This document shows, piece after piece, positions 10,401-45,600 of a DNA stretch of 64,000 bases (position 1 is its first letter; every line of letters starts with the position of its first letter). Source of the stretch: Balanoglossus misakiensis. Its lineage: Eukaryota; Animalia; Hemichordata. The stretch lies in contig CM082592.2 of NCBI GenBank assembly GCA_040954595.2, positions 9,163,677-9,227,676 of the forward strand. Reading direction: 5' to 3'. Made by a program: the position numbers and the translations under genes. The notes under the pieces are model-generated. The model saw only the letters and a program-made list of their open reading frames with translations, was not told the DNA's origin and did no database searches.

Positions 10401-10699
10401 AACCCACCCCTCGCCATATTTTTGCTACCACCCGATCGATCCCCCTTCAGAAGCGCCACGGCCTTCCCCAACCCCTCCAATTCCTCTAGTTCCTTTTCAA
10501 TCCAGCCCTTAAGAAATTCCTGTTGCTCGATCTCAAATCGGAGCCTGGAAATCGTCTCATCGATCCTTACCACCTCATCCTGAAGAACGTACTTCGTTCG
10601 ACCTCTACCTGCCCCGGCAGTCAAAAAGGAGACATCGGGTGGCTTCTTCCCCGGATACTTATCGTTCCAGCTCTGGAGGAACTCCGACATCGTATCCAT
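1423..10699 (-). CDS. BCR: BCR/ABR-family RhoGEF(-RhoGAP) gene, 5' portion; continues off the left edge of the window
   Basis: Exon 1 is 10699..9469 (410 codons plus 1 nt, donor G|GTGAGT). It starts MDTMSEFLQSWNDKYPGKKPP...IDETISRLRFEIEQQEFLKGWIEKEL, resembling the BCR N-terminal coiled-coil oligomerisation domain, then runs as a disordered region rich in Tyr motifs. The 105-nt exon 1527..1423 (tttgcag / gtaagt, phase 0-0) encodes SFGDTPSPVDMRKLVVAGILESDAVYRECLETLRH, matching the start of the BCR/ABR DH domain (MRKWVLSGILASEETY). A bridging exon is needed; the candidate is 4465..4209. Confidence 0.82.
4209..4465 (-). CDS. Candidate BCR-like exon: internal exon 2 (4465..4209) or alternative first coding exon (ATG at 4433)
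   Basis: Open frame MSDIYKERKPLEALPG...DGTSVDSVSL ends at a strong donor CTG|GTAAGT in phase 0, compatible with exon 1527..1423. A weak acceptor (ctcaacag) at 4465 gives phase 1, compatible with exon 1. Confidence 0.5.
8419..8448. repeat. Perfect hairpin, 14-bp stem with 2-nt loop
   Basis: TAGTCCTTTGGACC-AA-GGTCCAAAGGACTA in BCR intron 1. Confidence 0.85.
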
Positions 10700-10799
10700 G
10701 TCTGTATGCGTAATAATAGTTGAACAACAATCGATTGTACAGATCTACGTGTAAGAACTCACTACGAACTTAAGTTTTCCGGCGATTTCAAAACTTCCA

Positions 10800-18955: not shown

Positions 18956-21900
18956 CGGGTAGTCCCCAGGCAAACAACAACACTCGAGATTCTGACGAAG
19001 AACCCATGCAAATGGAAGAAGAGGAAGGCAATTCGAGCAGTAGCAGTGATAGTGAAAGTGACGACGGTGGTAACGAAGAAGCTATTAGAGCCCTTGAAGC
19101 CCAGGTAAGTGCGTTACGTGAAACAAACTCATCGGAAGGCCAAGTTGCTGTCCCAGGCCATAGTCCATGCACACACGTGGAGAAAGTTTATGAGACTCAA
19201 CATTAGCCTAGGTACATTCTGCAAGACCCGGAAGTATGGTCAGTTTATGGCCTTTGTGTGATAGTTTTCGTTTCTTGGATCTCATTATAAACTTGCTAGT
19301 GATGGGAAACACTATTTAAAGGTAACCATGGTTCCTGCATGGAGGTACTAGTACCTCCATGGTTAAGTTGTAACCAGTGGTATCTTATTCCCTTACACTC
19401 TGTATATGTTTGGTGTCGTTATTCTGTAGGTATCAGACAATCCCTTCCAGTATGACCTGCACGTACGGTTGATCAAGCTGCTCAGAAAGGAGGGTGAATT
19501 AGACAGATTACGCGAAGCACGAGAGAGGATGCATCAGCTGTTTCCTATGAATGAAGGTGAAGTAGCGATATTGTCATAGACATACAGTCATGCGGGATGG
19601 GAACCAGGGGTGGATCCATTATAGACAGGAAAATTCCTAAATAATAAGAATTTTACAGTACTCCAGAATGTAGCAGCACTTGTGCATACCTTGATTCTAA
19701 CAAACATACTTTGTCGTAGTCAATGTACTGAGTAATTCACACTTATGTCATGTAGATCTATGGCTTGAGTGGTTGAAAGATGAAATCAGCATTGCAGCGG
19801 ATTCTGAAGGAAAACGGGAGCACATTGTGTCTTTGTTTGAACGAGCCATCAACGACTATATGTGTAAGTATCAAATAATCACTGTTATAGGGGCATTCTG
19901 TATCTCAAGAAGGACGTGGCATATATGAAATTATATTTTTCCTCCCGAGGAAATGTTTTGCGACGGCTTCATTTCACATATTTACCCCCTGCATATTTTC
20001 AGCTGTTCCGATCTGGCTAGAATATGTGCAGTACTCCATCGGTGGTCTGGGAGAGCCGGACGGAATGACCAACATCCGCAACGTCTACGAGAGGGCCATC
20101 ACGGCCGTGGGTCTCCATCTCACAAAAGGTGCAGCCATCTGGGAGGCGTACAGAGAGTTTGAGAATGTCATCTTTCAGACAATCCAGGTAATTAATCCTG
20201 ACAAGTCTCTCCACACTCAGCTGTGTATTGAAATAACTGGTTCAGATGCAGTGTTTTTCTCTTGGCAGTACTCTTAACTCTTTCACCCCCAGTTCCCTCT
20301 TTAGAGGTCCAACCTTACCATAGAAAACAATGGGTTTGGGTTGAACCATGGTGGTGAAAGGGTTAAGAGAAGAGAGGAGAGGGGACTTGAAAGATGAAGA
20401 TAATAAATTGAACTCTCTCTGTATCTGATTTCATTTCAGCCAAGCTTAGGAGCCACAGTATCACCAGAAAAACAAGAAGAAATATCCATGCAGACAGAAA
20501 AAATTACGAATTTGTTCAAACGACAGTTGTCAGTGCCGTTAATGGGTGAGTATATGACCACCAGAGTGTGGCAAATTGTGGACATTTAATACCCTGCTCT
20601 CACTGGAAGCACACCACTCATGGATTGTTGTTCTTTCCCCCCTCAGATATGGAGAATACACGGGTAGAATTTGACCAGTGGCTGTCGGATGCTGTACCCG
20701 AACACATCACCCAAGCCTACAAGAGAACCCTGGGAAAATTAGAACACAGAAAACCTTATGAAGACGCCTTGGTAAATAGCTGTTATGTCTACCATCGTAC
20801 CTCCCTGACCCCTGATAATCCCACAGACATGAAAACCCTCCCTTCTGTCAGATATTATGTGATGACTGTACTAAAGGGGAAATCTCATATCAGAAATAAA
20901 AAAATACTATATTTTTTATCAATTCTAGTTGGCATCAGATCCACCAAGATACCAGGAATACCAGTCCTATATAGACTACGAGAAGTCAGAAGGTGATCCA
21001 GCCAGAATTCAGTGTGTCTATGAGAGAGCTTTACAAGAGAACTGTCTTGTACCGGATTTGTGGAAACAGTATACCAAGTACCTGGTGAGTGATGTAACGT
21101 ATTCTGTGATTGGTTTACAGGGTTTTCAAACTGGGAAATTTCTAGTACTGAACCAATCAGACTTGAACAAGAAACTCCCTTCACAATCCAAGTGTTCATT
21201 TTGTATTTCTTTATTTGATTCTCAGGATACCCAGCTGAAGATCGCCAATGTATCGTTACAAGTACACGAGAGGGCTGTCAGAAACTGTCCCTGGAGTGTT
21301 CAGCTCTGGCTAGACTATCTGCTGGCTTTAGAAAGATACGGACAACCCCATGAAAAAATCAAAGGTATTTTTTATATATGATGAGCCAAGTTCAACCTTG
21401 TGAAGTACTAAACTAGAAACATATGTCAGCTGCTGTAATTAGTCTTCTGTGGCTGTGTCGTTATATTTCCGTTTTTGTTCTTTTGTGCCACTTTCCAGAG
21501 TCATTTGAGAAAGCCATGAATGCTGGTTTGTCACAGGGATCAGAGTGCTTCCAACTCTGGCAATGTTACATCGACCACTTGAGGCGGAGAATAGATTGGC
21601 GTTCAGGTAAGAAAGTGTTCATAGCATAGAACGAAAACCTAAAATTCGACACATTCCAACAACATGTATAACAGATTCTAACATGTAGTCAAAAGGGTCG
21701 AGACACATGAAAACCATTGTGCATAGAGTCTCAGTTATATATGGCGAAATAAACATTGAGAAACTGACATTTATCATGTGCTTGATTTCAGATCACAAAG
21801 AAGAATTGGATGAGTTTCGGAAAAACATGAGAAGAGCAATAGATTATCTAGCAGAGTGTAAGTGTTCATGTTCATGGTGATGAAGTCAAAGACAGGAACA

Positions 21901-24900
21901 CTGATAGTCTTCAGAGATAAAATGACACAGACAGTTGTATGTAAATCACACATTCTTGAGATAATCCCCTTTACAATGAATTTTTTTGTTGTAGATTTTG
22001 GCGATGAAGCCGACCCCACATGTAGCTTACAACAATACTGGGCCAGGATAGAGGTGAGTGTAACTAATTATCTACTGTCAATCACTCTCTATTTTTGTGG
22101 ATCTGTCACAGTAATTTCCAGTTTCTAAAAAACGGGCATTTCAAGAAGTTGACTACACCTTGGTTTTTTTCTTACACTTATCTTGGTATGCAAAATGTTC
22201 AAAACATTATTCACCATGTTTTCTGTGTTGTTTTTTTATACAGGAAGTTTTAATTCTTTGATTGTGTTGTTTTGTCCGCAGGCGAAGCACTGTGACAACA
22301 AACAACTTGGCAGGGAATTATGGGAAGAGGTCATGTCGAGCCACGGCAAGGAGGCACAGATGTGGTTAGAAAATTACAACTTTGAAAGGTTTGTAAACGA
22401 TCCCTGTCAGCGATGTAGATAATAAAGAGATTGGAGCAGGTGAAATACATGTACCTGACTAGATTTATCCCTACAAATGTTCCAACATGTTCCATTAAGC
22501 AGACATGGTACATTTGTTTTCTTCACAGGGCGTATGGCGACGTCAAACACTGCAGGAAGGTGCTGGTGAGGGCGGTGCAGTCAGCCAGCGACTGGCCCGA
22601 GTCAGTCTGCGAGGCTCTGATTGCCTTGGAGAGAGAAGAGGGCTCGCTGGAGCAGTATGAGGCCGCCGTCAGCCGAGTGGAAGCCCAGATGAGTCGGGTC
22701 AACGAGAGGAGAACCAAGGTCTGTGGGATTTTCATGCCCATTATAAAAATGTTATGTACATACATCAAGGTTAAATGTTATGAGCTAGACCAAAGATTGG
22801 GCTGGTAAAGATTTTTGACAGTAATGAGTAATTTAGAGAATAATTAGCAATCTTTCCTTTGTGGATACAGGCAGCAGAGAAGGAGGCAGAGCAGGCCAAG
22901 CAGAAACAAGAAGTAGCAGAGTTCAGGAAACAAGCTAAAGCAGAGAAGAAAGCCGCAAAGAAAGACGAAATAAAAGCAGTGAAAAGAAAAGTAAGCACAT
23001 TGCTACATCGTATTAAATACATATTTGATGTCGATCAATCATATTTTTGCCTCAAAGTTTGGGACAGTTTGAGACAGCCTGTGGAACTCCCCTCTCCTCT
23101 CTCTGACAGGCAGACCACACTGACCAAGAAGAGACGAAAAAAGCAGACGTCCGATTTAAAGTTCCGCCACCACCAGGCATGCCAACAAAGCCGACCAATG
23201 AGGAACCACCGCAGAAGAAATCGAGGTCAGAAACAGCAGAAGTCGCAGCGGGTTACGTGTCACATGATTCCACCAAAGACAGTAGGACTGTCTTTGTCAA
23301 GAACTTGTCGTACGAGCTGACTGATGACAAGATACGAGACATATTTTCCAAGGTATAGTAATGTGTGTTGTTAAAATGTAAGTGTTCAGCTGAATTTTTT
23401 TGAAAAGTCATGTTTTGCTGACTGAACAGACAGCATACATGTACTGTGCTTGGAGATGGCAGTGTGAGATATAGTATAGAATCGTGCATTGTGTATTCAC
23501 AAAGTATAAATGTCTTAATTTTTCCACACAGTGTGGTGAAATAATTGAAGTCCGAATGGTGAACACTTTCAAGAACAAGTTCAAAGGATATTGTTACATT
23601 GAATTCAAAGATGAGGTAAGAGAGAGACTTTGGATTGCAAATATCAGTTGTATCACACAGTTGATTTCTACAGTTGAACAGAGGAATTCATTGCAAAGCA
23701 GGGTCTTTACATACTTTGGCATTTTGTCTTCTTTCGCCACCAGTTTGCTGTTAAGAAAGCCTTGGCACTCGACAGACAGCCCATTGATGGCAGACCCATG
23801 TATGTGGACCCATGTATTGATAAAACTAAAGGAGCGACCACACAACAACAGTTCAAGGTAGGTTCAAAGTGTTTTGTGTAGATTCATTTAATCACATCTT
23901 TCAAAAGTTATGTAGTCAATTTATTATGATGCAATGATTTATACGGCGAGTTAATAGTTGTATGTCAAGGCAATATCTTGAGAACTATGTGCTTGTGTGG
24001 AAAATGAAATCTTACAGTTTGGAAGCACTTACTAAAACCACAAATTTCAGCTTCCTGAATATCTTATACATGTAGCTATAAACAACATCCAAGAGGTCTA
24101 TGAATGTTATTATTTTTGTTGTAATTATGTTTTACAGTGGAGTACCGAGCTGGAGAAGAATAAATTATTTGTGTCAGGATTGCCAAGGTCAATCACAAAG
24201 AAAGATCTTCAAGACTTCTTTGGAAAGGTAACCTAAATGATCTTGCGAATACCGATGTTACAAATAAAAATAAAAATCACCTATTTTAGGTGATGATGAT
24301 GTGGCAATTTCATTGGAAAAGATAGAGTCTTTATGTTCTGTTTTTGATTTGTCCTCAGCATGGTACGATCAAGGATATGCGTATAGTGACGTACAGATCA
24401 GGAGCTCCGAAAGGGCTGGCTTATGTGGAATACCAAACTGAGGTAAGTTGAGCTGGTTTTGTGGCAGTTGATATACAATGCAAAAACTATTGAAAAACAT
24501 GCAAAAGGTGTATTTACTTTCCCTCAGGGTCCTCCCTAGCTTGTTTGTTGGCTACTCATTAATACTCATGCTCATGGACATGACAGGATAGGTGTTGTTT
24601 GTTTTTATCAGACAGAGGCAGCTAAAGCGGTGTTAGCCACCGACGGCGCCGAGATGGGAGAGTTCAAAATCAACGTTGCCATTAGCAACCCTCCAACCAG
24701 GAAACCGAAGAAAGGCACGTCGCTGGAAGAAGATCTGATGGACTTGCCGAGAGGACCCAGAGGGTAAGTTGGCCAAATTTCTGGAATGTATGGGAAAGTC
24801 TGAAGGAAGCAGCCCGTTGTTCTTGTTACGGCTTCAGTGGAGGTCTTGTCTGGATATGTTGAGGGTGAACAGTCACTGTGTCAGGTCTATACTGGTGTTT

Positions 24901-25171
24901 GGATAACTGGCCTGAAAAGTAACACTAGAATTTTTCAAATTATGAGGTACTTTCCCTTTATTCCAACAGGCCGGGATTTGGACCCCGCGGCAAAGGAAGA
25001 ACACAGCTGGCATTCATGCCCAGGGCAATCACCAAGCCTTCAGTGATCTCGAAACCATCCAGAGCTGGCGATGGCGACAGACAAGAAAGTACTGTCAGCA
25101 GTTCTAGTAGTAGTACTGGGGCCAAGAAGATGAGCAACGCAGACTTTGCAAATTTTTTCAAGAAGTCATAA
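18949..25171 (+). CDS. SART3: SART3 (p110/Prp24) U4/U6 snRNP recycling factor, 906 aa
   Basis: 21 exons: 18949-19104, 19430-19556, 19756-19863, 20003-20187, 20440-20545, 20647-20771, 20929-21084, 21226-21364, 21499-21606, 21792-21857, 21995-22053, 22282-22388, 22529-22718, 22871-22990, 23110-23352, 23532-23615, 23744-23857, 24138-24227, 24359-24442, 24612-24763, 24970-25171. Domains: acidic N-terminus, HAT repeats (LWLEWLKDE, IWEAYREFE, ERAVRNCPWS), two RRMs (TVFVKNL...KGYCYIEF; LFVSGL...KGLAYVEY) and the C-terminal LSm-interaction motif MSNADFANFFKKS. Confidence 0.96.
19338..19361. repeat. Perfect 24-bp palindrome in SART3 intron 1
   Basis: CATGGAGGTACT|AGTACCTCCATG. Confidence 0.85.
20274..20366. 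mobile_element. 93-bp TTAA-flanked MITE (piggyBac-like ends) in SART3 intron 4
   Basis: TTAA-CTCTTTCACC...GGTGAAAGGG-TTAA terminal inverted repeats. A second, partial copy lies at 26369-26427. Confidence 0.75.
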
Positions 25172-25524
25172 AAGGTAGTTAATCGTTGTGATTATTTTTT
25201 TTAAAGTGGCTTTACGTTTTGTTTGCAAAAGATGGCATCTGCTTTTACTGTGTTTGGGGTAATGACTGTAAACCAGTAGACTTCAGAAAGCTCTACCAAC
25301 TGCCATTACTTTTAATTCTCCATATACTTAATGTTTACTTTTTAGCAAGTGCCGAAAATTTTTTAAGTCGTTTTTAGATAGATGATCTCAGATCAAGACA
25401 TTATTTTCTAGGAACTGGATAGTGTTTTCTTTGACAGACTACCAACGTTTGTATGTGACTGTATGATGAAGTTAAACATTATTTCTTGAAGAAAGAATAT
25501 GTTGAGGCACAGTCACTCGACTGA

Positions 25525-25969: not shown

Positions 25970-28900
25970 TCACTGTTCATCGTTGCCGCGGTTCTTCCTC
26001 CTCCTTGACGACAGCAGCACCTTGGCGAGTCCGTATAGCAACACGAAAATTGCCACCAGAGCGATCCCCAGCACAAACCCGATATTGTACACGTAGCAGA
26101 ACATCACGAATCCCAGCAGGTAACCCATGTTCTGATAACTCCCCAGAAATCTCAGGCTCAGCCTCGGTTTCCAGGTGGCCATCTTGTGCTGCGACGACGG
26201 ACTGCTGGACGAGGACTGTAGGTACGGTTGCCACGACGACACGGGCGGCGGGCTAAAGTACTGCTTTGCTAGCCGGCCAATCAGGTCAGTTCTGGAGCAC
26301 AACTCTTCAATTTTGTCACCTGCCTGAAAACAAATTATATACACAACCAGAGCAGATTATTTTATGATGTCCAACTTCACCATAGTAAACCATTGGTTTG
26401 GACCAAACCATGGTGGTGAAGGGGTAACCCTCAAGCTTGAAGGCAGGCAGACATCATATCTATGCTGCAAAAAATGATTTGACGTTCCTCCAGCCTAATG
26501 ACATTGTTTTGTGCGAACGCCAATTATTTTGAGATTCCAGACACAGCGAGAGATGATCAATACCTACCTGTGTGTTAATGTTCGATGATAACCTGTAAAG
26601 AAATCGGACCAGTGTGGCATTTTCAAAACTTCTGATTGGCTGCAAGTCTGGGTCCCCCGTGTAGACAATGTCAAACTTCCGTAGTCCATTGGCCAACTGC
26701 AACATGTTATGATAACAAGAGTTTGTAATGATATATAATGCAACAGCAGCAGGAATATCACAGTTTAGATGGTTCAACTCAAAGTCAATTGATATTTGTA
26801 TTGACTGTACCTGATATCTTCCGAGAGCTGTGAGTTCACCATCTACCATGTCCGGCAGATGAGATTTCCCGTCACTTTTCCCATTGGACAGCGTCTCCCA
26901 TGTCACATTGGTCTCGTTGCCCGTTGGTGGCTCAACCTGAAGAGCAAATGTGAAATGTGAGAAAAAAAACAACGAAATTGTCACAGTGAAGTCTTGTGTA
27001 CAAATGGACCGGTGATGGATGGGCATGTGGCTAAGATGGTTGGGGTTAGGCCTGGTAGAGAGTGGTGGAAGTTACCTTAAAAACCGCCGATAAATACTGC
27101 AGGGACTGCCTTAGATAATTATTCACTTTCTGGACATCTGGATGCGGGTCGTCATAACCGTCCGGATCGCGAAAACTGCCGGTTGTGCCGATCTGTTGGT
27201 TGATGTCCATCAAGCTATCGAGTCCCAGCAGACTCATCAGTCCGCTGGACGAGCCACTGCCTGGTTTAGACAGCAGTGTGAGTGTGCTCTGGGCATGCAG
27301 GATCTTTCCTAACAGTTGTTCGATCTGCAGTTGTATATAAAGTAGTATATTGAGTCAGTATTGATGCTAGAAGTTACCTTTACGACATGAACTCTAAAAG
27401 ACAACCAGGTGACACAAAAATCAGAATACAATAGGGACTCACCAAGCTCTGCATTTCTTGACTGAAAAGTGGTTTATACACAAAGCCCTGCCCCTCCAAC
27501 TCAGCCAATTGCGACTTCAGTAAAGTTCCGCTAGGGGGTCTGGCTGTGGATAAGAAACTGCCACCTGTGCTAGTGGGTGTAGTGAAATCACTTCCTAGTC
27601 TGGGTCCACCAGTTTGCTCGTACAGCAGACCTTCCGCTGAAAAATACCAAGGTAATGAATTTGGTTGTTATGTTTTTTGAAACTGTTAAAATTACTATTT
27701 TCTAAATGTTCACATGTCCTCTTCCTTCCAAAATGTCAAACCCCGCCAGGCCTACCTTCTTCTATCATTTGCGCCAGGCCTTGTTGGGCATAGACTTTTG
27801 AAACTCTGAAGAGCATGTAAGCGTTCTTGGAGGCACTCATGTCCTGTCTGTAGGCACGTGGCAGGAAGTCTATGAACAGCGTGGTGTAGAACAGCAAGTT
27901 GTCGGTAATGAACTTCATCCTGCAAGGAGAATGGCGATGGAACATGTTAAATTTTTACTAAGAGGCTCAGGGGGAAAAATGCAGTTGGGGGAAAATGTCT
28001 AATTGTTGTATGTTTCTCATATGACATTAACTTTTTCAAGCATGATATCTTACCATTGTGTTTGGATAGCAGTATTCTTGCCTTCAGCCTTACTGGGGTT
28101 AAATCTCCGGTCCTCGGTGTATCGCCATGGTTGTATGTAACTCAACCAGGTTTCATACATCTGTCAACATTTGACAAGCCAAAAAACAAACCATTAATCT
28201 TGACACCCGAACATGGCTTATGTGCTTAGCAGTCGGAGAACTGGACTCATGATAAAAGGATAATGAAAATAGAGACCAACTCAATGTGTGTTATTTTCAA
28301 TAAATGTACGGTGATGAAGTGAAACACACATACCAGTCGGAAAGATGCATCCAGTGGCCATTTGTCAAAACCGTGTCTTAGAAACGCATACAGCTTCTTT
28401 TGAAAGATGTGTGGGATTATAGTCCTGTCACCAAAAAAAGGATACAAACCAAATTAGTATTTTGGTCAGTTTAGGTTATTTTCGCACCTTGCATCATTGT
28501 GTATTAGTTTGTAATCACATTCATAAAAGTGTCACATCTGTCACAATAATTACAAGATGTACATCAGAATGGTATGCGTACCTTTTCAGGTCATCAAGTG
28601 GCAGTTCAGTGTGTTGTTGGTACGGCGACGAGATTACAGTGGTCTTCACTGAGTTGGCAAAGAAGTGAAGATGTTTCACCAACATGCGTACAATGCGGAC
28701 GTGATCCTGACTGGGAAGAAAGCTTTCCTGTGGAACACAGACAAAAGTCATGATTTCCATATTTATTTCAAACAAAAACGTGAAGAGCACCGTTATGTCA
28801 GAATCAAGAGTTTTACTATGCAGTATAAAACTTACTGCAAACTGTTCAGACAGGCTTCTGTCCCGCACGTCCAGTGAATTCTGATTGAGCCAGAATTCGG

Positions 28901-31886
28901 CGATGATCTGGGCGAACGTCTCCGATCGCCAGTGTTCGTGCGCTGTGGGTTCTGACTTCATGGCTGCCTGACTCGGCGATCGGACCTGGCCGGCCGCGCT
29001 GCCACGGATCAGACCACTGTACGACGGCGACTGGTAGTGCTGTGAGTGCTTTCGCTGTTGGAGGCTGCCACCGCCGCTGCTGCTATGGGGCACGTGAAAG
29101 CTGGGTGATTGCCTGCAAGTGCATGATAAACACGAGCCATTACTCACGACATAAAAAATAAGGCCACCTGCAACTGTTCTGTTCATGGAGAATGAAACAT
29201 TACAGTCAGACACGACAGAAAATCTGCTTTTGATAAGCTGACCAGATATCACTGATCACTTGCAACCACTACTCATGCATGCATGGCATTCTCAGTGGGA
29301 TCAACACCACATCAAAGTTCAATACAATAATACATGTATGTAGCTGGCTGCCAATTGCCATGCAAATGCATAGCATCAGCCTTTTGCCCAATACTGGACT
29401 GAAAGCTTGTCTCAGCAACTTACTCTGTACAATTCAGACCTCAGTATGTGCACATCAGATAATTCTGAGTGAGTATTAGTCATGTGTAACAATTTTAATG
29501 ACTTTACACAGCAACCATTTGACACAGCACAAAGTACTTTACTCAACAACTTGTACAAAACAAAGGACTGCAATGTTACAAATACAATTAGAGCTTTTGC
29601 AACAAATCATGCATTGTCATATATTGACATTCAGAGATATTTACGTAATGCAAGAAATGCAGTCTGGCTTGCTCATTACACAGATTCTTCTTGTCAAGCT
29701 GAATCTGAGTGCATTATTTTTTTTTTTAACGAAATGCCATGTCTGGTCATGATATACATGAACAATGCAACCAAGTTCTTCCAAGTTAAATTCTCACCCC
29801 ATTGTGTACAGTGGCATGAATGAAAAAGATTAAATTTCATTCATAGAAAAACGTTCATTGAGAACATCATAGTGCCACGTCAGAAATGCATGCATGCATT
29901 CAGGAAAGTTTGAGTTGATGCAGAAAATCGTGTGCAGCCAACACAGATGCACATGTACTTGAATGTGTCAGCTAGATGTAGCAATGTTATACCCAAGTGA
30001 CTTACAGAAGATAGTGATACAGAACCCCATTTTGTGGAATCCTATCAGAGAATGTAAAAAAATAGTTGACAGGTAGATCACAAAAACCATTAATTACAAG
30101 CTACCTTACCTAGGTTGTCAACAGTACCGCCAAAAATGTCAAATTTTACAGATACAGAATTTAGCAACACTATTAATATCTGCTTGTCTGCTGTACAGTA
30201 AAACCAAGCCAAACACTTTTTTTCCTCATTTCCTACAAAAACAAATCAACAACATGTAAAAAAAAAAATATGGTTTCAGGTATCATTTTTTACCTGCTGT
30301 ACGGCGACTGTGGAGAATGGCCGGGGGAAGGCCCACTGCTTCCTCCAGACAGAACGGGCATGTTCACATTGTCCGGGGGCAGGAAGTAATTCAGGTAATC
30401 GTCTAACACGCAGGGATACACACAGTTCTCTGGATTGCACCAGAAGGCCATGTTCTGCAGGAAAACAGAAGGCGAAGATTTCTCAGTAGTCACCCTACTG
30501 AATGCCTTTAATTAAACAAGCACATACCATGTACATGTATAAATACAGATTTAATATAGGACCCCTCTTTCATTTAACCAATTCATATCCTCTCATCAAG
30601 AAATGTAGGCTTTTAACTCACCTTATTCTTGGGATAGACAATGAAGTACGCAAAGTGGAAAAAGAAATATTCAAACGCATCTGATTCAAAGATAAGGAAA
30701 TCAACTGTTTATAGCGTGGCCGGAACAAGCATGCCCTTTAAGTAAAATAGACCCGGCACAGAAACAAAAGTTTTCCATGTTGTAAGAACATAAAGGATAC
30801 TCAGGGAAATAACATTGGCTGGTCTTCCTTGAGTCTGATACGAGATCTTGTTCCCGTACAGAATTGGGATAACACCTTCCTGGATGGCATGCCTACTTGG
30901 AGTCTGTATGAAATAAAAATTGTTGATCATGATCGATTGAGTGTTTGTACAAGAGAGTGTGTGTGTGAGAGAGAGAGAGAGAGGGGGGGGGGGGGGAGGG
31001 GGAGGGTTTAACAAAAGTACTTACCGGAAGGCATGACACCAAGAAGTCATATCTGAGGTAATTATCTGACTGTAATTTGGACACCATATTCATCAGAGGT
31101 CCGGTTGGTGACAGAAACATCCTGAGTGCTTGGAACTCTATCGGGTGAGTCTGCTTCGTTATCGTTTTCAGCCCCCATCCTGGAGAGTTGTTGAATCCAA
31201 ACAAGCTCTCCAGCAACAAGGGAAATATTGCATGAAGATCCTGTTGGCATGAGATGAGAGTTTCACATTTTGAGTAATGACTATTACATACAGTAACAAA
31301 TGGAAAGCTCAATTAATTCTCAAAGCTCGGTAACTTCTGACCAAAATTCTGTATACACTGTAATAATACTTACTCGAACACTGCAGTCATTTATGATGAT
31401 TGTTACCTCATCACATCGTTGTTTTAATGCCCTGCTGGTTGCCAACTGAAATCTTGTCTGAAACAAACATCGACAACACTGTATGAAGATCTGCATCAAT
31501 GACCGTATGTAGCACAATCGCCCGTGGGCCCCAAGTCTGCCCTACGCTTATGCGCTAATAGGCACTCCCTGTATTACAATGAGAGCGCCTACGCGCGGAG
31601 CAGACTTGGAGTCGATCGAGCCGGGTCCACAAGCGACAAATCACATATGAACAAAGGCAACAGGCACTAGTGCATGGGACCAGTACCCTTCACGAGAGCG
31701 CCGGGGACTTCATTGAGTTCTGAAAAACATCAATGCGTTTGCGGAATGCTGTTTTCATATAATGTCCATGGAAGTATTTGGTATGAGATGTTGTAACGAA
31801 ATTTTGCACCACTTTCACCCGGTTACAGTGCTACAAACAGCTAAACTTACCGTGACAGACAAGTTACTTGTTGAGGAGGCCGCCAT
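25970..31886 (-). CDS. SMPD4: Sphingomyelin phosphodiesterase 4 (neutral SMase 3), 831 aa
   Basis: 16 exons (high-low): 31886-31851, 31457-31374, 31240-31025, 30903-30801, 30680-30622, 30454-30294, 29112-28836, 28727-28582, 28424-28334, 28160-28054, 27919-27756, 27636-27443, 27324-27076, 26936-26811, 26696-26568, 26323-25970. Motifs: LHAIFPLLLESLFG, AFEYFFFHFA, WRSETF, KHLHFFANS, WPLDASFR, WLSYIQPWRY, GDPDLQPIRSFE, PRLSLRFLGSY, plus a C-terminal transmembrane segment. Confidence 0.96.
26369..26427. mobile_element. Truncated copy of the TTAA MITE in the last SMPD4 intron
   Basis: GTCCAACTTCACCATAGTAAACCATTGGTTTGGACCAAACCATGGTGGTGAAGGGGTAA aligns with the 3' two-thirds of 20274-20366. Confidence 0.75.
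30681..30800 (-). other. U12-type (minor spliceosome) GT-AG intron, SMPD4 intron 4
   Basis: 5' splice site GTATCCTTT. A branch-like TTTCCTTATC (30700-30691) lies about 10 nt before the CAG. The frame is preserved across the junction (ISL-N-AFEY). Confidence 0.85.
30955..31007. repeat. Compound (TG)n(GA)n microsatellite plus G-run
   Basis: Directly visible in SMPD4 intron 3. Confidence 0.8.
31518..31636. mobile_element. About 120-bp foldback, MITE-like element in SMPD4 intron 1
   Basis: Nested inverted arms TCGCCCGTGGGCCC/GGGTCCACAAGCGA, CCAAGTCTGC/GCAGACTTGG and TAGGCACTC/GAGCGCCTA around a TGTATTACA centre. CpG-rich compared with its flanks. Confidence 0.65.
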
Positions 31887-32185
31887 TTTGTGATGTTTGT
31901 TTGTTGATTTTCTTTCCTCCGGGCAAAACTGCCCTCAACCCCTAACTTAGGAGGTCATTTCGGACACCCCATGCAGGTGTTAATTATAACGACAACACGA
32001 GACCATGCAGCAGCTGACTCAGCGGATGATGTAAATGAAAAGCAACCCAAATTTGTGAGTACGATGCTTGCGCAACGATATGACACGCTGATTCGGTGTA
32101 TGACAGTTCATTTATAGGGAAAGGGATAAAGCTGTAGCGCATGACAAACATCGGTACGTGAAGTAAAACTCTGATATCACCAAAC
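31880..32185. promoter_or_regulatory. Compact bidirectional promoter shared by SMPD4 (-) and the Tpt1N-LRR gene (+)
   Basis: The start codons at 31886 (-) and 32186 (+) are 300 bp apart. A YY1-type CAAAATGGCGGC overlaps the SMPD4 ATG, and an AP-1-like TGACTCA lies at ~32015. Confidence 0.65.
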
Positions 32186-35121
32186 ATGCAGGACTCAAAC
32201 CGTACAGGCACTGTCGGTGGCAATGGCAACGGTCAAGTCAGAAGTAAACGTGGGCGCCAAAAACAGGACAGGGGCCAAGACGGCGAAAGTCGACTGAGCA
32301 AAAGATTGGGTTATGTGTTGCGGTACGGTGCTGAAAAAGAAGGACTGCGAGTCAGTGACACTGGTAAGACTTTTATGCTACCATGGAAACACCAACAACG
32401 TACTACAGGTGTCAATATCATAAACTTGTATCAGTCACTGAATGAAATGAATATATATATTTTCAAACCGAGTGAAATGCAGGTCATTGTTTCACTGTGG
32501 AAGCCATTTCCCCAGTTTATCCCCAATACATGCAATAGGGTCATCACCTGTGGTAATTTACATGTAATTTACATGTTGGTGCACATAACCACCTGTTCAG
32601 ACTGAACCACGTGTTCCTCTCCTGTCTTTCAGGATATGTCGATTTGAGGGAGCTACTAAAACTGCCATTATTCCAACAACATGGAGAAGACGAAGTCCTT
32701 GATGAAATCAAACACTCCAGGTCGGGCAGAGGCAATAAAAAATTTGAATTCAAGAGAGAATATAATGGCCAGATTTTGGTGAGAGCCCTCTATGGGCGGA
32801 AAATGGAAAGGGTGAGTGCCCTAAATTCTTTTGTTTTTATCTCTCCCACACCATTCATCGATTTGATCAAAGATAATCCAATGAATGATCTAATATATGG
32901 TGATCCAGAATTCAATTCTAACACAGTTTTTCTTCTTCTGTTTTCCACTTTTCTTATCTTCAGAACCCTTACCACGATGGCTGTAAGGTTGTCAGGCTTC
33001 TGGAGCTGTGCTTGCTTCACATCTGTAAACACATGGAAGATTACGACCTGGAAGATTTTCCAGATGAGTATTTAGTAAGGTGAGTGACTACCAGAAAGTT
33101 GTTCCTTTACATTGTGTCGTCTGTGGAGAAATAGAAGTTCAGCTGTTCTCCAGTTACGTAAAATTGAAGATACATGTACTAGTTAGTATTCTCAACATGA
33201 AGTACCTTCTGCTCTTTAAATTGCAGTTCAATTGTACATAAACTCAAACGCCAGAAGAGACTGACCAATAACACCATGAGATGCGCACTGGGCAATGTGC
33301 TAGAATCGCTGGATCTTGACGGAGTCTATCTGACGGAGAAATCACTGAAGATTATCACTGCCAGATGTCCGAACCTGAAACATCTTGGCCTGAAGAACTG
33401 TGGCTACCTGATGAATGATCAGTTGTTTACACAAATGATAAAAGTGAGTGTGCCACTTGAGTCCGTCTCACTGGCTTCTTTTGTTTTTATCCAGTCGTGA
33501 AGTTTAAAAAAAATAATATTGAATGTATAAATGTATATGACAATGTCAAAGCCCCTGATATTGTGAAGATCAGGAAAATGTTGTAGGCATTTGTGTATTT
33601 TAAAAATTGTACCTGTCATGGTCTGTTGATTCCGACAAACAACACCTTGAATGAGAAAGTTGTGTATTGCTCCTTGAAATTCTTTCAAGGTCAGGCCTCT
33701 CAACAGGATAACGAAACTCTATCGCCCTGAATGTTTCCCACTGAAAGACAACAGTTATTTCTATTGTGAGTTTCCCAGGAAGTATTTCAGCAATTTGCTG
33801 TAAATGGATCGCCATTGTATCAAAATACATTATCCCGTCCTAATCACTGTTACATGTGTGTGGTTGCTTGCATAGGCTGCCAGTCAAGGTTAAAGATGTC
33901 TTGTAAAACTGGTCGTTGTTGGTTTTTTAGTCTAGTCTAGTATGGTTCTTCAGATCACACATGTATGTCGTGAATTACAGTTTAAAATTTGTCAGAAATA
34001 ATTCAAAGTGCAGATTTTGGGTTTTGGATTTTTTTGGCCTTGTGTTGGGAAATGAGTCCTTGAGTTGCATGATTGTGGAACCAGGAGTCTTGAAGGCCCC
34101 TGGCTGTCAGTCATTGGGCAACCAGTCAATCTAAGTCGCCCAGACTTCAGACCGAAATCACTAGTGTGAAGTAAAGTAACCAGTTTTGTTTATCGTCCGT
34201 GTGTCAGCAAGCAGCTACTGTTCCCCCCACGTAGTTTATCAACACTTCTCAGATCAGAACCGCGGCCCAGTCTGCAATTAGTGCTCGTTAAGCAACTAAT
34301 TCTCAGTCAACAATCGCCTGGCTTGTTGTGTAAGCCTTGCATTCACATGATGTTAGCACAGCACAAACTCCCGTCTTGTTGTGTTTACGTCTATGACTAT
34401 TTTACACGTTTTCTTCTTACGGAAGAATTTTGTTGACAAAAATTTCAATCCCAGAAATGTCCACACTCCAACATTCAAACAGAAGATGATGTGATGCTTA
34501 TTTTTCTTTTCCGTGCAAACAAAAAATACTTAAGTTCTCAGGATTTTTGCGGTCTTGTTCCACAAGTGTGGCCACCCAAGACAGCATTTTGCACCGCTGG
34601 GAAAACACGCTGTCTCAATTTGCTCAGGAATATGGGAACAAATTTTTTAAACTTCCTGTTTTTCCCAGATGTATTTCAAACTTCCAGACTTTACTTCAGC
34701 TGCTCAGGTCAAAGGAGTAAACTTTTCGTCTTTTGACTGTACGGTGAAAAGAGTTTTCGACAACAAAAGGTTGTATATGGTAGTCCTGTTTATTTTCGAT
34801 ATACCATAACAAAATTTCCATATCTGTTTTTTTTTTTTGCTACAGAAATTGCCACTTATGGAGAAGATCCACTTACACGGATGTTCGCAGCTGACAGGGA
34901 AATCGCTGAAATCGCTACGGAAACACGTCCCGAGCATCGTAGGTGTCAACTTGGCCTGCATCAAAAATTTCACTCAGCAGGATATCATAGATTTCATCAA
35001 CAATTGCCCAGACCTGATCTATATTAATATCTTGGAGTGTGGTCTGGAAATGACTGATGAGTTCTGTCTCAGACTGACAGATGCCTGGAATGGCCGCAGT
35101 ATTAAGATAGTTTATCAGTGA
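32186..35121 (+). CDS. Uncharacterised 321-aa protein: Tpt1/KptA N-terminal (RNA-binding) lobe + BC-box-like motif + AMN1/FBXL-like leucine-rich repeats
   Basis: 5 exons with canonical sites and a continuous frame: 32186-32363, 32633-32811, 32964-33079, 33227-33443, 34846-35121 (966 nt). The N-terminal part LSKRLGYVLRYGAEKEGLRVSDTGYVDLRELLKLPLF...KKFEF...ILVRALYG resembles TRPT1 LSKALSYALRHGA..LGL....GFVPL..LLQLPQF...KQRF...IRANQG. It is followed by VVRLLELCLLHICKH and LRRs (LESLDLDGVYLT, CPNLKHLGLKNCG, MEKIHLHGCSQLT, CPDLIYINILECG). Confidence 0.85.
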
Positions 35122-35198: not shown

Positions 35199-35390
35199 AA
35201 ACAAGTTTATTTTGATCATTTTGTATTTCTCTATGTTTACTTTATTTGAGTTTAATCAGTTTATTTTGAACATTTTTTATTCTCAACACATGTATTTATT
35301 TCATTTGAGTTAAAACAAGTTTATTTTAAACATTTTGTATTTCTCTATGTTTATTTTATTTGAGTTTACACCATTTGATTTTGAACATTG
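35199..35390 (+). repeat. Degenerate T-rich minisatellite (unit ~55 bp, ~3.5 copies) just downstream of the Tpt1N-LRR stop codon
   Basis: Unit is approximately AACAAGTTTATTTTGAACATTTTGTATTTCTCTATGTTTATTTTATTTGAGTTT. Confidence 0.8.
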
Positions 35391-37329
35391 TGTAATTCTT
35401 TTTTGTTTTGTTTGTGTTGTTTTTTTTACTTCAGCTTTTTTCACATTCAGACAAACCAAATTGTTCATATAAGCAGAATAATACTTGTATATGTAAATCA
35501 AATGATTTGTTTATATTTTAGGAGTGGATGAATACCATGTATTTTCCGAGTTGTAAGTATGAATAATGTTATACTTATTTACATAGAAACTTGCAAATGT
35601 TTGCATGGTATCCTGCCAAGGGCACATCATTGAAACATGTGTTCGAAACGACATGATCCGTGATATTTTTCCTTATTACTCTGGTTTCTTGAAGAAGGGT
35701 AAAGCGCTTTGGACGCGTCTATTTCATGTCACATGTATACAGCGCCCTCTATGGGTAGTTCCCTCGTTTCTAAGGGGGCGCACAGGATTCCTCTTTGGCG
35801 AAAAAGACGGAGAAGTCAAATATTTCATAGGAAATCAATAACTCACAAAGGCACACAATGGAGAAACAGTATCCACTGACCATCGTGCTACTTTTGTCAA
35901 GCCCTTTTGCCGCATCCCGCGACGCGGAGGATCTCCCAGAGCAACCTGTTTTAATGTGAAATTAAAGTTCTTCAAATACACAATTTAATGAACCTCGCGA
36001 ATGCTTGCACACCCTCGGGGCCGATTAATCAGAGGAAATGCACTCATCGCCACGCAGATACCCCGCCTTGTTTCGCTAGCTGTTCCACGTCTCGTTCGCG
36101 TCGTCCCATGAGATTCGGCGATTTCACTTAAACGTTTCCACACCGAAGCCCTTAATATTTGTCTTGTCTGTGAAGGGGAAAGGGGGGGGGGGGGGTCGTG
36201 TTTCGAGCAGACTGCCTGAAAAGGAAGGTGAAGCATAGGAACACCCGTTATCTGCCGGCAGTGTAACTTGTTATTATTTACACGCCAGAATAACTCGCTC
36301 GCACGCGATGTCCAATCCACCAGACCGAGCCGAACTTTGACCGTTCGGAGCCAACGGCGACGTGATGAGCGCGGGCTAAAATAAAGGGATGGCTCGTGTT
36401 TTCGACGAGAGCATGTATTTTGATTCCCAAATGGACCCAAAAGAATCGGTGTACTGTGTAGCGACCAATTTTGTTGACCTGCTCGCTAAACCGTTTTCAA
36501 TTAACCTCTGCCAGAGCGAAAAGCGCATTTCGTTGTAAAGCCTAGCTTTGAATAACACACGGTACTGTACAGAGATTACTCAGTATATGCTTGTAGTATA
36601 CAGGTATGATTCCATGTTATTTTCAACGAAAATTATGATTTTAACAAAAGAAAATCTACTTCTAAAATACTGAACAAAATGTGCGGACCATTCTTTTTCG
36701 GCCGGGGAATAAGTCCCCGAGAATCCGTAAGACGTCAAATAATTTTCAGAGGAAATGGAACCGGTTCGATGAAGACAGGTGCATTCAATGATCCAGAAAC
36801 TCGGGTCGTGCCGCTGCAAGAGATGAGTTTTTGTGCACGTTAAGTTGCTGTTTTTGAATTCTGATCTTTTTCAGCAGAAAAGGTGTTTGAAAATGGCCTA
36901 TCGATGCTTAAAATTTTTTTATAGAAGCAAAATATGAGTAACTGGGTATTTTGATTTAACCCCCTGGTTGCCCGGACTGTTTTGCTTTTCTTTTACCATT
37001 TTGTCACAGATCCAAGATTCTTTCATCGTCACGGTAATATGACAATATCCGGTCTAACCGATGCTTGCACTGACCGCACACAAACACGACGAGAACGTTG
37101 AATCGTTCCAATTCTTTAACCTGAAATCGTACAAACTCGCTCAAAATCGTTCCCGTCAATAAATTTCGCGGTGGCATCGCCGTTGATTCAGACACCTGTG
37201 AGGCATTTTCTTTTCTGGGCTGTTTCGCGTCACTCACGAAAGTGACAACACATCGCTAAATTTCAAGGATTTACTTCAAGCAGTTAAAATTTCGTTATCG
37301 GTTCTCCATCACTGCCGTTCCTGTCGACG

Positions 37330-42673: not shown

Positions 42674-45600
42674 TCATCGAGTGCCATACTCCAGCGACTG
42701 TGCCTGGCCGAAGTATCCGAGTCCGTTGTACGCCGTGTTTCTATACGGATTGTTCCGGTACTCCGATATGTTCTGTGGGTACGGCGTGGTGCGGTGGCTG
42801 GTCGTGGGCGACCGCAGGTAGCAGCTCGATATGGGTCCGAAATTGCATTGTGTGTCGTGGCGGTAGGGCGCGAAGCCCTGCTCGGCACAGGAGTTGTTCG
42901 GGGTTATCTGCATATTGAGTCCGGTTGCAAAGTCTGTGTTCATTTGCATTGGTGGAGGCGGCGGTGGTGGCGGCGGTGGTGGTACTGGCTGCGATCCCAT
43001 CATTGGGAAAGATGGCGGACTTGGATCCAGATGGTTGCCGTGGCTACCGAGCATTGCACTTGACATAGGAGAGACGTTGGATGGCGTCGACACACTTGAA
43101 GTAGCCCTGTCGTCGTCTTGTCTCTCTGCAGTGTAAAATATGATATTAATTTCGTTAAATTTCCGAGATACACAGTAAAACGTTTGCTATAATAAACAGA
43201 TGTGATGTAGGACTCGGAGAGATCAGAATACGCATGCGCTGGGTCAAGTTGGATTTTGGATCCTTACCTTGGTCTTCACGATTGCACTGCGACTGCGTCC
43301 TTGCCCTTGCAACGCCGACAATCTGCAGTGAACTGGGACGATGGTGATTTCTTGGCCTCGCGCCAGGCTGACCATGCGGTAAAATTTCCACCAAGCTGAA
43401 ACACAGAAATTCACCGGGGGACAATTACATTTTTGTCGTCGAGAATACCATAGAACAGAAGGGTATTCACGCATACAGTCGAAATAATATTTTAACGTGA
43501 AACTTAATCTGTTGGTAAATCGCTATGTCTTCCAGTGCGTCTTGCGGACGCAAAAGCTCAAAGTATTCTGTTATAATCCGGATTTTAATCAGATTCATCA
43601 TCCTTACGATGATGACGTCAGCGAGCGTGATCCTCCCTTGATAAATGACGCACTGCGTCACCACGGAGACCATAGCAGCTGAACCGACGAGTATTAATAA
43701 TGCTTTTGGGTGACGTCACTTACCAATCGTCAGGATCGCTGTCTCGGAATCCCTTTGCGAATGGATTACTGGCAATTTTCAGCTGTGTTATCTGAAAAGA
43801 AGCACACGAGGAAAACGTCACTTCCGTGAAGTTGAATGGCAAAAAAGTATGTCGAAGCTCTCGGCGTAAATCAGTCAAGGGCCAATTGTTGGAAGTGGAC
43901 TGAACTAGATCTCAAGAAAAGCTCCTTAAACACGTGTCTTGTCTTCTGGCGTAAATATTTTCCCCGTTAACATGACGGAATAAAAACGGTCTTGGACAAC
44001 TGTCAGGACAACTAAGTCGTGGTATTTTCGTTGCATATTTGGATTCTGTGCCAGCCCGTCACAAACAAGCGAGCAACCACGCCCCCTCCCACACCAACTT
44101 CTGAAGTTGCCCACCCCTGCATCCGCTATTGGCCGGACTGAAACAGAAACGCTCTCACAAGAAAAGGGTCTGGTTCTTATTTCTGATACTACAGCAGCAT
44201 AATCTGAAAGTTTCGGTCAGTGACTATCTTTAATTCAACGTAAAGTGTCTTCTGCTTGGGAATAAGTGATCGTGACACGGCGATTCAGAGTGACTCTCTT
44301 GCGCTTAGGCGCTCTATTGTACTGAGGCAACGCACTTAAACAATCGTCCCACCCACTCCTCAAATCCCAAACACTCGGATTATAACTGTATGTTTCTGAG
44401 AGTGCCGGGGACGCACAGACACTCGTCTGCGGCGGCTGTCAGCGTTAGAAAGCTCCCGTTCACTTTGAGCGCTGTTTACACATTAAAAAGTTTGTAAACA
44501 AATCGCACAATTGTACAATGAGAGCGGAACTTTTTGCGCGGGCCTCAAGTAGCCGCGTCGAGGTTCCTGCCTGTCACCGTTCGGCTTGGGCTTCTTGAGG
44601 TTTTGTTATTGTTGCTTACGTCTTCTGAGATCGTCGATGGGGTCTCCATTTGTAGCAGTGGTTCCAGAAGACCACGAAGGTCAACAGCGCTCGTGCCTTT
44701 CTTGGAGAAATCTCCAACGAAGCAACGCGTCAATTCTGACACCGCTGGTGTTTGTGTCGCTTGTATTTGTAAGAAGGGGGTTAGGTCAGCTATGAATGTT
44801 ATCTCAGCCATCTAAATGGGAATAGGTGCGTTTTTAGTCAGTCCCATCGTTTGATAATTGTTTTGTACACAGCTCTGAGAGCGTCGGTCTCATCTCTTGT
44901 TGTGTTCTTCAACTGCCACACTTGTTGAGACTTCGCAGAAAGTCATTTGGGCGCTGCTGTTTGTTTTCAGTGCCGTTATACTCTTTCTTTCTCCCCGCCA
45001 TGATTCGCGTGTCACCCGGTTACAGCACCGCGTGACAAATCGGCCGCAATAATGGGACCCCGCCAACAAAACACCGACATCTCGATTTAATGGACGGCCC
45101 TGTCATGTACATGTGTGTGCAACGCAGACCGAATAAAAAGAAGAAAAGTCTACTCATTTCCATATTGTTTTCCGATATTTTTGTTATCCCACTTCAATCG
45201 AGCGCCACCCGACTCCAAACTCCCGTTCCATCATTTTTTTGGAGGGAAGCTCCACCTGTTGTCATCGGCTGGAATTCTCTTTGTGCTTCGGAATCGAATT
45301 GGAAAATTGGACATCAATGTAAAACCAATTTTCACCGCTCAATTGAAACCTTTAAACATACTAATGTACGATAATCGATGAGTCCGAATGACACACCATT
45401 TATCATCGTGTCAGGCCGAAGACTAAAAAAAACCGGGGGCAGTCACCGTCTATGGTAATACAATCAAAGACACCGTCCCGCTATTTAGTTTGGGTTTCAA
45501 CTTTTACTCAAGTTGTATGCTAGCTGGCCCACGCGCTTTTGGAAATTACATTAAATGTTAATATTAAGTGTTTTCTATACGCGGATAATTCTTCATTTGG

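Follow-up and report, generated by a model that had tools for sequence, protein, structure and literature searches.

According to a 2026 paper, every Tpt1 enzyme characterised is a single bilobed unit except for one fission-yeast fusion (PMC12810181). In Clostridium thermocellum Tpt1, Ser10, Lys11, Arg18, Arg68 and Tyr80 bind the nucleotide and its 2'-phosphate (PMC6333775), and the Tpt1 RNA site is completed by arginines of the NAD+ lobe (Arg121; Arg133 in PhoTpt1). The VHL-box of Elongin C-binding receptors consists of a BC-box, LxxxC/S/AxxxPhi with S, T or P before the Leu, and a Cul2-box, PhiPxxPhixxxPhi, 8–23 residues on (PMC3355856). In the receptor ZYG11B, Leu18 is held by seven Elongin C residues (PMC13201589). 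In this study, a Balanoglossus misakiensis gene that joins half of the first system to a module resembling the second was analysed within a 64-kb stretch of DNA, referred to as the window.

The gene had five exons and four GT..AG introns (phases 1, 0, 2, and 0), which spliced into a 321-aa frame with a lone stop codon at its end, as the initial annotation had described (Table 1). The family profile, scanned in six frames over the whole window, matched the five exons only. No NAD+-lobe exon, the alternative exon that the initial annotation had considered, was recognisable in intron 4 or elsewhere in the window. The window protein aligned without gaps to the NCBI-annotated Ptychodera flava protein P0001, with 79% identity over 309 residues. 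It was confirmed that this is one real gene, encoding a Tpt1 RNA lobe, a BC-box and five leucine-rich repeats (LRRs) and lacking the NAD+ lobe. The gap between the gene and its divergently transcribed SMPD4-like neighbour is probably a shared promoter.

Table 1. Positions of the gene, its key residues and its upstream neighbour in the window
Feature	Position	Strand	Content
Exon 1	32186..32363	+	aa 1–59; disordered N-tail, then helix 1 of the Tpt1 RNA lobe
Exon 1 residues	32297; 32300; 32321; 32324	+	Ser38; Lys39; Arg46; Tyr47 (His in Tpt1)
Exon 2	32633..32811	+	aa 60–119; remainder of the RNA lobe
Exon 2 residues	32740 (Lys96); 32791 (Tyr113)	+	Ser88, Ser90, Lys96, Arg110, Tyr113
Exon 3	32964..33079	+	aa 120–157; linker, BC-box, start of the Cul2-box-like motif
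Exon 3 residues	32997 (Leu131); 33023 (Ile139); 33057 (Phe151-Pro152)	+	BC-box Leu131-Cys135-Ile139; Phe151-Pro152
Exon 4	33227..33443	+	aa 158–230; end of the Cul2-box-like helix, capping helix, LRR 1–2
Exon 5	34846..35121	+	aa 231–321, stop; LRR 3–5, capping strand
Gap, 299 bp	31887..32185	.	between the ATG of the gene and the likely start codon of the SMPD4-like gene
SMPD4-like gene	31884–31886 (likely start codon)	minus	divergently transcribed

The whole fusion was found in hemichordates, echinoderms, amphioxus, annelids, molluscs and cnidarians, and also in a rotifer, a nematode, Capsaspora and amoebozoans; 27 of the 158 collected proteins scored on all three sub-profiles. No vertebrate member was seen among the family proteins found. 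In the tree, hemichordates, cnidarians and animals grouped as expected. The fusion was also present in a transcript-assembly protein, a Soliformovum TRINITY record. A gene-model artefact joining two neighbouring genes does occur in the collection, where P0182 has an extra N-terminal region with a PF01764 match. As an explanation of the family it is almost certainly wrong, because the identical full architecture recurs in many phyla and in the Soliformovum record, the window protein and P0001 align without gaps, and the breaks in partial models from other animals fall at the same junctions. The family scan of prokaryote genomes gave 0 of 38 candidates. In viral contigs, 6 of 54 were marginal hits (E 3e-4 to 5e-4 among candidates); the three inspected shared only a short search motif, and the viral hits were rejected. 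When viral sequences were scanned for Elongin C, 43 loci came up, but Elongin C was not among them.

Since Capsaspora and amoebozoans have the fusion too, it is likely older than animals, and the animal intron is uninformative on its origin. Exon shuffling at intron 2, proposed by the initial annotation, was therefore unsupported. That annotation had also placed the start of the BC-box exactly at a phase-0 boundary of exon 3. The phase was correct, but the intron follows residue 119 within the linker, 11 residues ahead of Leu131. A duplicated Tpt1 lobe likely joined a VHL-box LRR protein before the amoebozoan/opisthokont split. Several members carry the UniRef label 2'-phosphotransferase, which is likely a mis-annotation, and the NCBI name is fbxl-1-like. 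In agreement with the initial annotation, which knew no named precedent, no description of the Tpt1-lobe/BC-box/LRR architecture was found in the literature searched, the three likeliest surveys lying outside its reach. The family is real, ancient and apparently unstudied.

The Pfam family PTS_2-RNA (PF01885) was matched by 9/9 members of alignment A1. On P0001 the match covered only profile positions 3–83 of 177 (E 6e-12), and in every family member scanned coverage past position 93 of 177 was absent. The HGT motif was found in 0/32 family proteins scanned, so the missing NAD+ lobe noted in the initial annotation was real. Residues 24–112 of the P0001 model superposed on mouse TRPT1 (7yw2) with Z 14.2 and rmsd 1.4 Å over 85 residues, which bears out the assignment of the N-terminus to the Tpt1 RNA lobe; the N-tail had pLDDT <50 in this orthologue model. 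Exon 2 alone, searched against the PDB, gave only RbcS matches, which were chance.

The pocket residues were counted in a corrected alignment of 33 family rows. Arg46 was retained in 32 rows, Arg96 in 30, Tyr/Phe113 in 30, Lys39 in 26 and Ser38 in 21. In profile register, Ser38, Lys39, Arg46, Arg96 and Tyr113 correspond to Ser10, Lys11, Arg18, Arg68 and Tyr80 of C. thermocellum Tpt1. Arg96 was replaced by Lys in 2/33 rows, the window protein among them, and Lys96 is, judging by the alignment, a lineage quirk. Position 47 was Tyr in 25 rows and His in 7. Of the Tpt1 tetrad Arg-His-Arg-Arg, the window protein has Arg46, with Tyr47 and Lys96 at the next two positions and the fourth residue absent. 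In the non-animal-clade members, Arg-His-Arg was present in 6/6 and YGHS in most. The K-x-R lysine was out of register. Columns with at least 85% conservation made up 13/84 of the lobe vs 8/136 of the LRR part, and further conserved basic residues of the lobe were Arg40, Lys51, Arg110 and Arg115.

The motifs LRY, KKF, RALYGRK and VVRLLELCLLHICKH were all present as the initial annotation had given them. Its view of the lobe motifs as degenerate did not hold, given the rarity of Lys96, the state of the non-animal members, and the Tyr of RALYG, which aligns with phosphate-binding Tyr80. The family resembles Tpt1/KptA/TRPT1 in its N-terminal winged-helix lobe and in the largely retained phosphate-binding residues. 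It differs in lacking the NAD+ lobe, the HGT motif and the fourth arginine, in the change of His to Tyr in most animal members, and in the attached VHL-box and LRRs. The NAD+-lobe arginines that complete the Tpt1 RNA site are likewise absent from the family. On its residues the lobe is catalytically incomplete, yet not degenerate. Since the NAD+ half is missing, the lobe should be unable to catalyse, and an assay of NAD+-dependent phosphotransfer would be expected to be negative. The lobe could instead be one half of a split enzyme, docked through its LRR part and complemented in trans by an NAD+ lobe or ADP-ribosyltransferase encoded elsewhere, and the three tetrad residues of the non-animal members are in line with this. 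However, no NAD+-lobe piece was found within the window, the BC-box would be left without a role, and the characterised enzymes are bilobed units; this explanation is highly improbable.

The BC-box core LxxxC/S/AxxxPhi was present in 31/33 rows, including the window protein, and Leu131 had a modal frequency of 1.0. S, T or P preceded this Leu in 13/33 rows, including 5/6 non-animal-clade rows; the window protein has Arg. The Cul2-box-like motif follows 11 residues past the BC-box, within the 8–23 range. Its internal spacing was canonical in 2/33 rows and one residue longer in 24/33, the window protein included, and its proline was missing in 5/6 non-animal-clade rows. Phe151-Pro152-Asp153 and the next hydrophobic helix were well conserved in animals. 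Among the nearest non-family matches aligning over the box, 22/28, in rows selected for matching the box region, had a canonical BC-box and Cul2-box vs 0.6% in shuffles. Profile A4, built from lobe and box fragments, matched Tpt1 chains and, weakly, LARP7. No BC-box protein was matched among solved structures at E 10, so the box is undetectable by sequence against them. In the fold searches, the BC helix did not align with the box of either Rad7 or ZYG11B.

The complex of P0001 residues 112–315 with Elongin C was predicted with a score of 0.80 in three runs, and the best of three controls scored 0.02; the query was the 79%-identical orthologue with Elongin C from another animal, and the score cannot separate Elongin C from SKP1, as close cousins may pass. 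The pass mark was reached by 51/78 solved and 2/108 mismatched microbial pairs, and by 39/65 solved and 2/126 unrelated eukaryotic pairs. At least 81% of contacts were common between runs, with a partner pLDDT of at least 84. Resemblance to VHL-box complexes of known structure may account for this score. In the model, P0001 Leu125, equivalent to Leu131 of the window protein, contacts the Elongin C equivalents of human V73, Y76, L103, A107 and L110, which are 5/7 of the residues around ZYG11B Leu18. The Phe-Pro sits in the predicted interface like F50-P51 of ZYG11B, and the window protein has the same residue at 17 of the 21 interface positions of P0001. The BC-box is thus predicted to dock on Elongin C through Leu131, and the model agrees with the BC-box-like motif of the initial annotation. 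Compared with the VHL-box LRR CRL2 receptors (ZYG11B, PRAME, LRR1), the family shares the BC-box helix, the Phe-Pro hydrophobic motif, the LRRs and, in the prediction, the ZYG11B Leu18 pocket. The box of the family, however, is internal, behind a ligand-binding lobe, its Cul2-box is one residue longer, the residue before Leu is usually Arg, and no ARM domain is present.

The orthologue model contained five LRRs of the cysteine-containing type and a cap, close to the count of about five in the initial annotation. The top match of the LRR part was Rad7 (Z 17.1, rmsd 2.6 Å, 168 residues), aligned from residue 140, so that the fit begins past the BC helix. FBXL2 followed with Z 16.1 and rmsd 3.4 Å over 186 residues, and across two fold searches FBXL2 and Rad7 were similar (Z 17.9 vs 17.8; 16.1 vs 17.1). 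For residues 140–315, yeast Rad7 is thus the best or tied-best fold (Z 17.1–17.8), and it is an Elongin C-bound LRR protein; its identity to the family is 16%, it has no Tpt1 lobe, and the BC helix lies outside the aligned range. Rad7-Elc1 serves DNA repair alongside Rad16 and Cul3. The Rad7 fold and the rarity of canonical Cul2-box spacing would suit an Elongin BC binder that works with another cullin, like Rad7-Elc1 with Cul3, or as a non-degradative RNA/DNA repair adaptor, and not in a CUL2 ligase. This is unlikely, as the Phe-Pro-Asp and its helix are conserved in animals, the Phe-Pro lies in the predicted interface, and the closest relatives have canonical Cul2-boxes.

SKP1 and Elongin C are related proteins. 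An atypical F-box receptor of the SCF/SKP1 type, as the name fbxl-1-like implies, would fit this kinship, the tolerance of the complex prediction for close cousins, and the best LRR sequence matches, FBXL2, FBXL17 and SKP2. It is very unlikely, since no F-box family was among the 15 Pfam families matched at E 0.1 by the nine A1 members, a search that a divergent F-box could escape, the motif order runs from BC-box to Cul-box, and the predicted contacts follow VHL-box geometry. AMN1 homologues were ESM Atlas feature matches 2 and 3 (0.84 and 0.83; a lead only), and the AMN1 clusters had no PF01885. The BC-box segment of the window protein may resemble the AMN1 N-terminus, as the initial annotation proposed.

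A C-terminal NADAR domain (PF08719) was found in P0037, P0062 and P0092 (E 1e-27 to 1e-29), that is, in 3/6 non-animal-clade rows and none of the animal rows of alignment A2. As in the NADAR/YbiA ADP-ribosyl hydrolases, the domain is full, and the equivalents of Lys50, Trp89 and Trp133 were retained. The Glu43 equivalent was Thr, Ile and Ile, lost in 3/3, and the Glu125 equivalent was Phe, His and Glu. The two acidic ribose-binding residues of an active NADAR hydrolase did not occur together in any fused member, and the window protein has no NADAR domain. The overall reading of the initial annotation, a candidate RNA-sensing ligase receptor, was supported in part; the wide family range and the NADAR members had escaped it.

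The gene is best read as encoding a conserved protein, predicted to dock on Elongin C and likely a cullin-RING receptor, whose NAD+-less lobe likely reads a phosphorylated nucleic-acid mark, a reading held with moderate confidence. Elongin BC would connect the receptor to a cullin, CUL2 by descent despite the altered Cul2-box. The lobe would hold a flipped-out nucleotide that carries its phosphate at the 2' position or at the terminus; the NADAR fusions hint at a possible ADP-ribosylated form. Lobe and LRRs together would position a protein bound to the marked RNA or DNA for ubiquitylation. The same Elongin C-based receptor might instead take a phospho-degron or a small phosphorylated metabolite, such as NADP(H), ADP-ribose-1''-phosphate or 2',5'-ADP. 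Tpt1 crystals hold NADP+, 2',5'-ADP and the pAp end of CoA in this same pocket, and the contact residues are retained in the family; the basic NAD+-lobe surface, the proposed RNA path, is gone, and NADAR indicates ADP-ribose chemistry, for which RNA is not required. However, the Ser-Lys/Lys/Arg clamp of mammalian TRPT1 grips ssRNA and ssDNA (PMC10415124), and the conserved Arg40, Lys51, Arg110 and Arg115 suit a polyanion. A metabolite or phospho-degron ligand is rather unlikely.

If the nucleic-acid reading is true, the family would be a cullin-RING receptor selecting by a nucleotide-phosphate mark. A lone RNA lobe with an Elongin C docking motif, from amoebae to amphioxus, would put the fold to a new use. 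The family is a small candidate reader with defined, mutable residues, and the database names 2'-phosphotransferase and F-box are corrected for its members. What 2'-phosphate and ADP-ribosylated RNA do in animals is an unsettled matter (PMC13247085, PMC9458441). In a more speculative and rather doubtful version, the ancient eukaryotic receptor, assembled from two ADP-ribose-pathway domains put to new work and retained in many invertebrates, would grip a phosphorylated nucleotide with the Tpt1 lobe and ADP-ribose with an ancestral NADAR, and so read ADP-ribose-phosphate RNA. The mark would then be a stalled Tpt1 intermediate or an ADPr cap, and proteins on the marked RNA would be destroyed, as an arm of RNA end-damage quality control.

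The five exons splice into 321 codons and a stop codon in a single frame, as the initial annotation described, and all introns are GT..AG (phases 1, 0, 2 and 0). The exon 5 query gave one relative among 22 candidates, the Ptychodera flava orthologue P0001, which was 79% identical to the spliced window protein over 309 gap-free residues. P0001 was used in place of the window protein for searches, folds and complex prediction. Ten of 17 partial or aberrant animal models start, stop or break within 2 residues of the window junctions. The fusion gene is almost certainly real, and that the fusion is an artefact is barely credible beside these junctions. The fusion gene is head-to-head with an SMPD4-like gene, with 299 bp between its start and the likely SMPD4-like start.

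Features of the window and junctions of the fusion gene
Feature	Position	Strand	Remark
439-codon open frame	9428-10744	minus	no Pfam match at E 1e-4
HAT-repeat + RRM gene	about 19900-25200	plus	presumably SART3-like
SMPD4-like gene	25970-31886	minus	mit_SMPDase PF14724 in four ORFs
AT-rich tandem repeat	35200-35399		55-bp unit, 3.6 copies, directly past the fusion-gene stop codon
ATTAAA, nearest on fusion-gene 3' side	35961
AATAAA, nearest on fusion-gene 3' side	36380
ORFs	42674-43186 and 44545-44811		may be 3' exons of the T-box gene
T-box exons	48012-48428 and 57429-57845	minus
Fusion-gene junction	residue 119		matched by partial/aberrant animal models P0018, P0072
Fusion-gene junction	residue 157/158		matched by partial/aberrant animal models P0023, P0038, P0042, P0080, P0090, P0137
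Fusion-gene junction	residue 230		matched by partial/aberrant animal models P0004, P0023, P0036, P0072

Two relatives have unusual structures. In P0072 (197 aa), the lobe is joined in frame straight to the exon-5 LRRs, and the whole BC/Cul box is missing. The join would correspond to window junction 32811>34846, where both introns are phase 0; this single sequence could be a ligand-reading isoform without ligase recruitment, or a model error. The Branchiostoma hybrid P0010 (487 aa) has about four copies of the exon-4-matching segment, reflecting either tandem exon duplication or an assembly artefact.

The structure model from 30 sequences had a mean pLDDT of 86.8 and a pTM of 0.66. Residues 24-112 of the P0001 model, the lobe, matched mouse TRPT1 over 85 residues (Z 14.2, rmsd 1.4 A). 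The NAD+ lobe and HGT motif, reported missing by the initial annotation, were indeed absent from every family member scanned, which excludes Tpt1 catalysis for this polypeptide. The fusion protein is outside the Tpt1 enzymes, since two defining features fail; the exclusion concerns one polypeptide, and a split enzyme is very improbable.

According to PMC6333775 and PMC10622864, Arg18, Arg68, Lys66 and Tyr80 of C. thermocellum Tpt1 contact the transferred phosphate; Arg68, Lys11 and Ser10 contact the base; and His19 contacts only the 3'-phosphate, its mutation causing a threefold step 2 loss. The register to the family was set by HMM alignments with yeast, mouse and a YGHS-type Tpt1. Residues were counted in 33 rows (window protein plus 32); five fragments without a lobe, cluster-mates, P0010, P0072 and the aberrant or partial models P0080 and P0090 were excluded. 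Arg occupied position 46 in 32/33 rows and position 96 in 30, with Lys at position 96 in 2 more, one of them the window protein. At position 113 there was Tyr in 22 rows and Phe in 8. Lys was found at position 39 in 26 rows and Ser at position 38 in 21, and at position 47 Tyr (25 rows) was commoner than His (7 rows). Non-animal-clade rows had Ser, Arg-His, Arg and Tyr in 6/6 and Gly-His-Ser in 5/6. Lys96 is conservative because fission yeast Tpt1 R96K restored step 2 340-fold over R96A, yet complementation was weak (PMC12810181). The lobe was at least as conserved as the remaining protein. The earlier description as a dead enzyme with eroded motifs thus holds for catalytic incompleteness and is not supported for the motifs, as the phosphate-pocket residues are mostly kept. 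Judging by the kept pocket and conservation, the lobe, though catalytically incomplete, looks selected for binding a putative ligand.

Crystallised Tpt1 lobes take RNA, NADP+, 2',5'-ADP and CoA, and part of the ligand site is supplied by the NAD+ lobe, missing here (PMC6333775 and PMC10622864). The lobe would fairly probably bind a nucleic-acid phosphate mark; a metabolite or phospho-degron as ligand is unlikely. Capsaspora P0062, Balamuthia P0092 and a third member, P0037, carry a NADAR domain C-terminal to the LRR. Compared with YbiA and residues defined in PMC11543638 (register inferred from motif spacing), the phosphate-binding Lys and Trp positions were retained, and the first glutamate was replaced by Thr or Ile in 3/3. 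The last-strand glutamate position was Phe, His or Glu. TRPT1 and PARPs make ADP-ribose-phosphate RNA in human cells (PMC9458441). In these three sequences, one receptor combines two domains of the ADP-ribose pathway whose catalytic parts are eroded, a hint that the ligand may be composite, for example ADP-ribose-phosphate RNA.

A review defines the VHL-box by the consensus (S,T,P)LxxxC/S/AxxxPhi and, 8-23 residues further on, PhiPxxPhixxxPhi (PMC3355856). The previously proposed BC-box-like motif was present at core level in 31/33 rows and in strict form in 13/33; the Cul2-box was canonical in 2/33 and one residue longer in 24/33. The fusion protein is predicted to work like VHL-box receptors, although the strict consensus is broken at two points. 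The box region presumably also resembles the AMN1 N-terminal motif. Both canonical boxes occurred in 22/28 non-family hits whose best stretch starts here, versus 0.6% of shuffles; these hits were chosen by the family profile, biased toward the BC pattern and not toward canonical spacing. The C-terminal module is therefore likely derived from VHL-box LRR proteins. A large set of mostly 1000-2400 aa proteins (P0034, P0040, P0043, P0048-P0052 and others) has an internal canonical BC-box and Cul2-box, then LRRs; the two named members are amoebozoan, and in P0040 an OTU domain lies immediately upstream. The set is likely an undescribed VHL-box receptor expansion.

Complex prediction used P0001 residues 112-315 and the animal-type Elongin C sequence L081 (identity confirmed), without alignments. 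Each of three runs scored 0.80, against 0.02 for the best control; the runs shared at least 81% of contacts, and partner pLDDT was at least 84. The mark set by the prediction tool was reached by 51/78 solved versus 2/108 mismatched microbial pairs, and by 39/65 solved versus 2/126 unrelated eukaryotic pairs. The predicted contacts reproduced those listed for ZYG11B (Leu18, Leu19, Cys22, Leu23, Leu26, Phe50 and Pro51; PMC13201589), and 17/21 interface residues were identical in the window protein. Since similar complexes are already solved, this prediction with Elongin C shows likeness, not binding. The fusion protein would very probably bind Elongin C. SKP1 and Elongin C are kin, and an SCF receptor is very improbable. 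The fusion protein would likely form an active cullin ligase. Rad7 works with Cul3; another cullin, or a non-degradative adaptor, is rather improbable here.

The family profile was run against 1.84 billion representatives, with separate sub-profiles for the lobe, the box and the LRR; 27 of the 158 proteins gathered had all three modules. The fusion, which had been proposed for a search across metazoans, was found in hemichordates (Ptychodera, Glandiceps, Saccoglossus), other animals (Amphiura, Patiria, Branchiostoma, Owenia, Dimorphilus, Pinctada, Liolophura, Lottia, Adineta, Soboliphyme, Hydractinia, Rhopilema) and non-animals (Capsaspora, Balamuthia, Soliformovum). Vertebrate, arthropod, fungal and plant names were absent among the 21 clusters with names looked up (best 150 hits). 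The ESM Atlas held a 52-member cluster of the same architecture, automatically named 2'-phosphotransferase; as far as seen, members are in databases under automatic names only. The architecture, unrecognised from any named gene by the first reading, was likewise undescribed in the literature searched for it or its context, including PMC10415124, PMC11125620, PMC9503650, PMC8120803 and PMC13247085; a prior computational mention is possible.

In a 29-row tree, the window protein was sister to Ptychodera (95/96) inside hemichordates (100/99), and 23 animal-clade rows were split from 6 others (100/99). The latter were the three named protists and three further rows, several long-branched, with the root for drawing only. 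The simplest inference from these sequences is a family origin before the amoebozoan-opisthokont split. Chances are about even that the protein as a whole would be an Elongin C-based cullin-RING receptor with the lobe as reader of a nucleic-acid phosphate mark.
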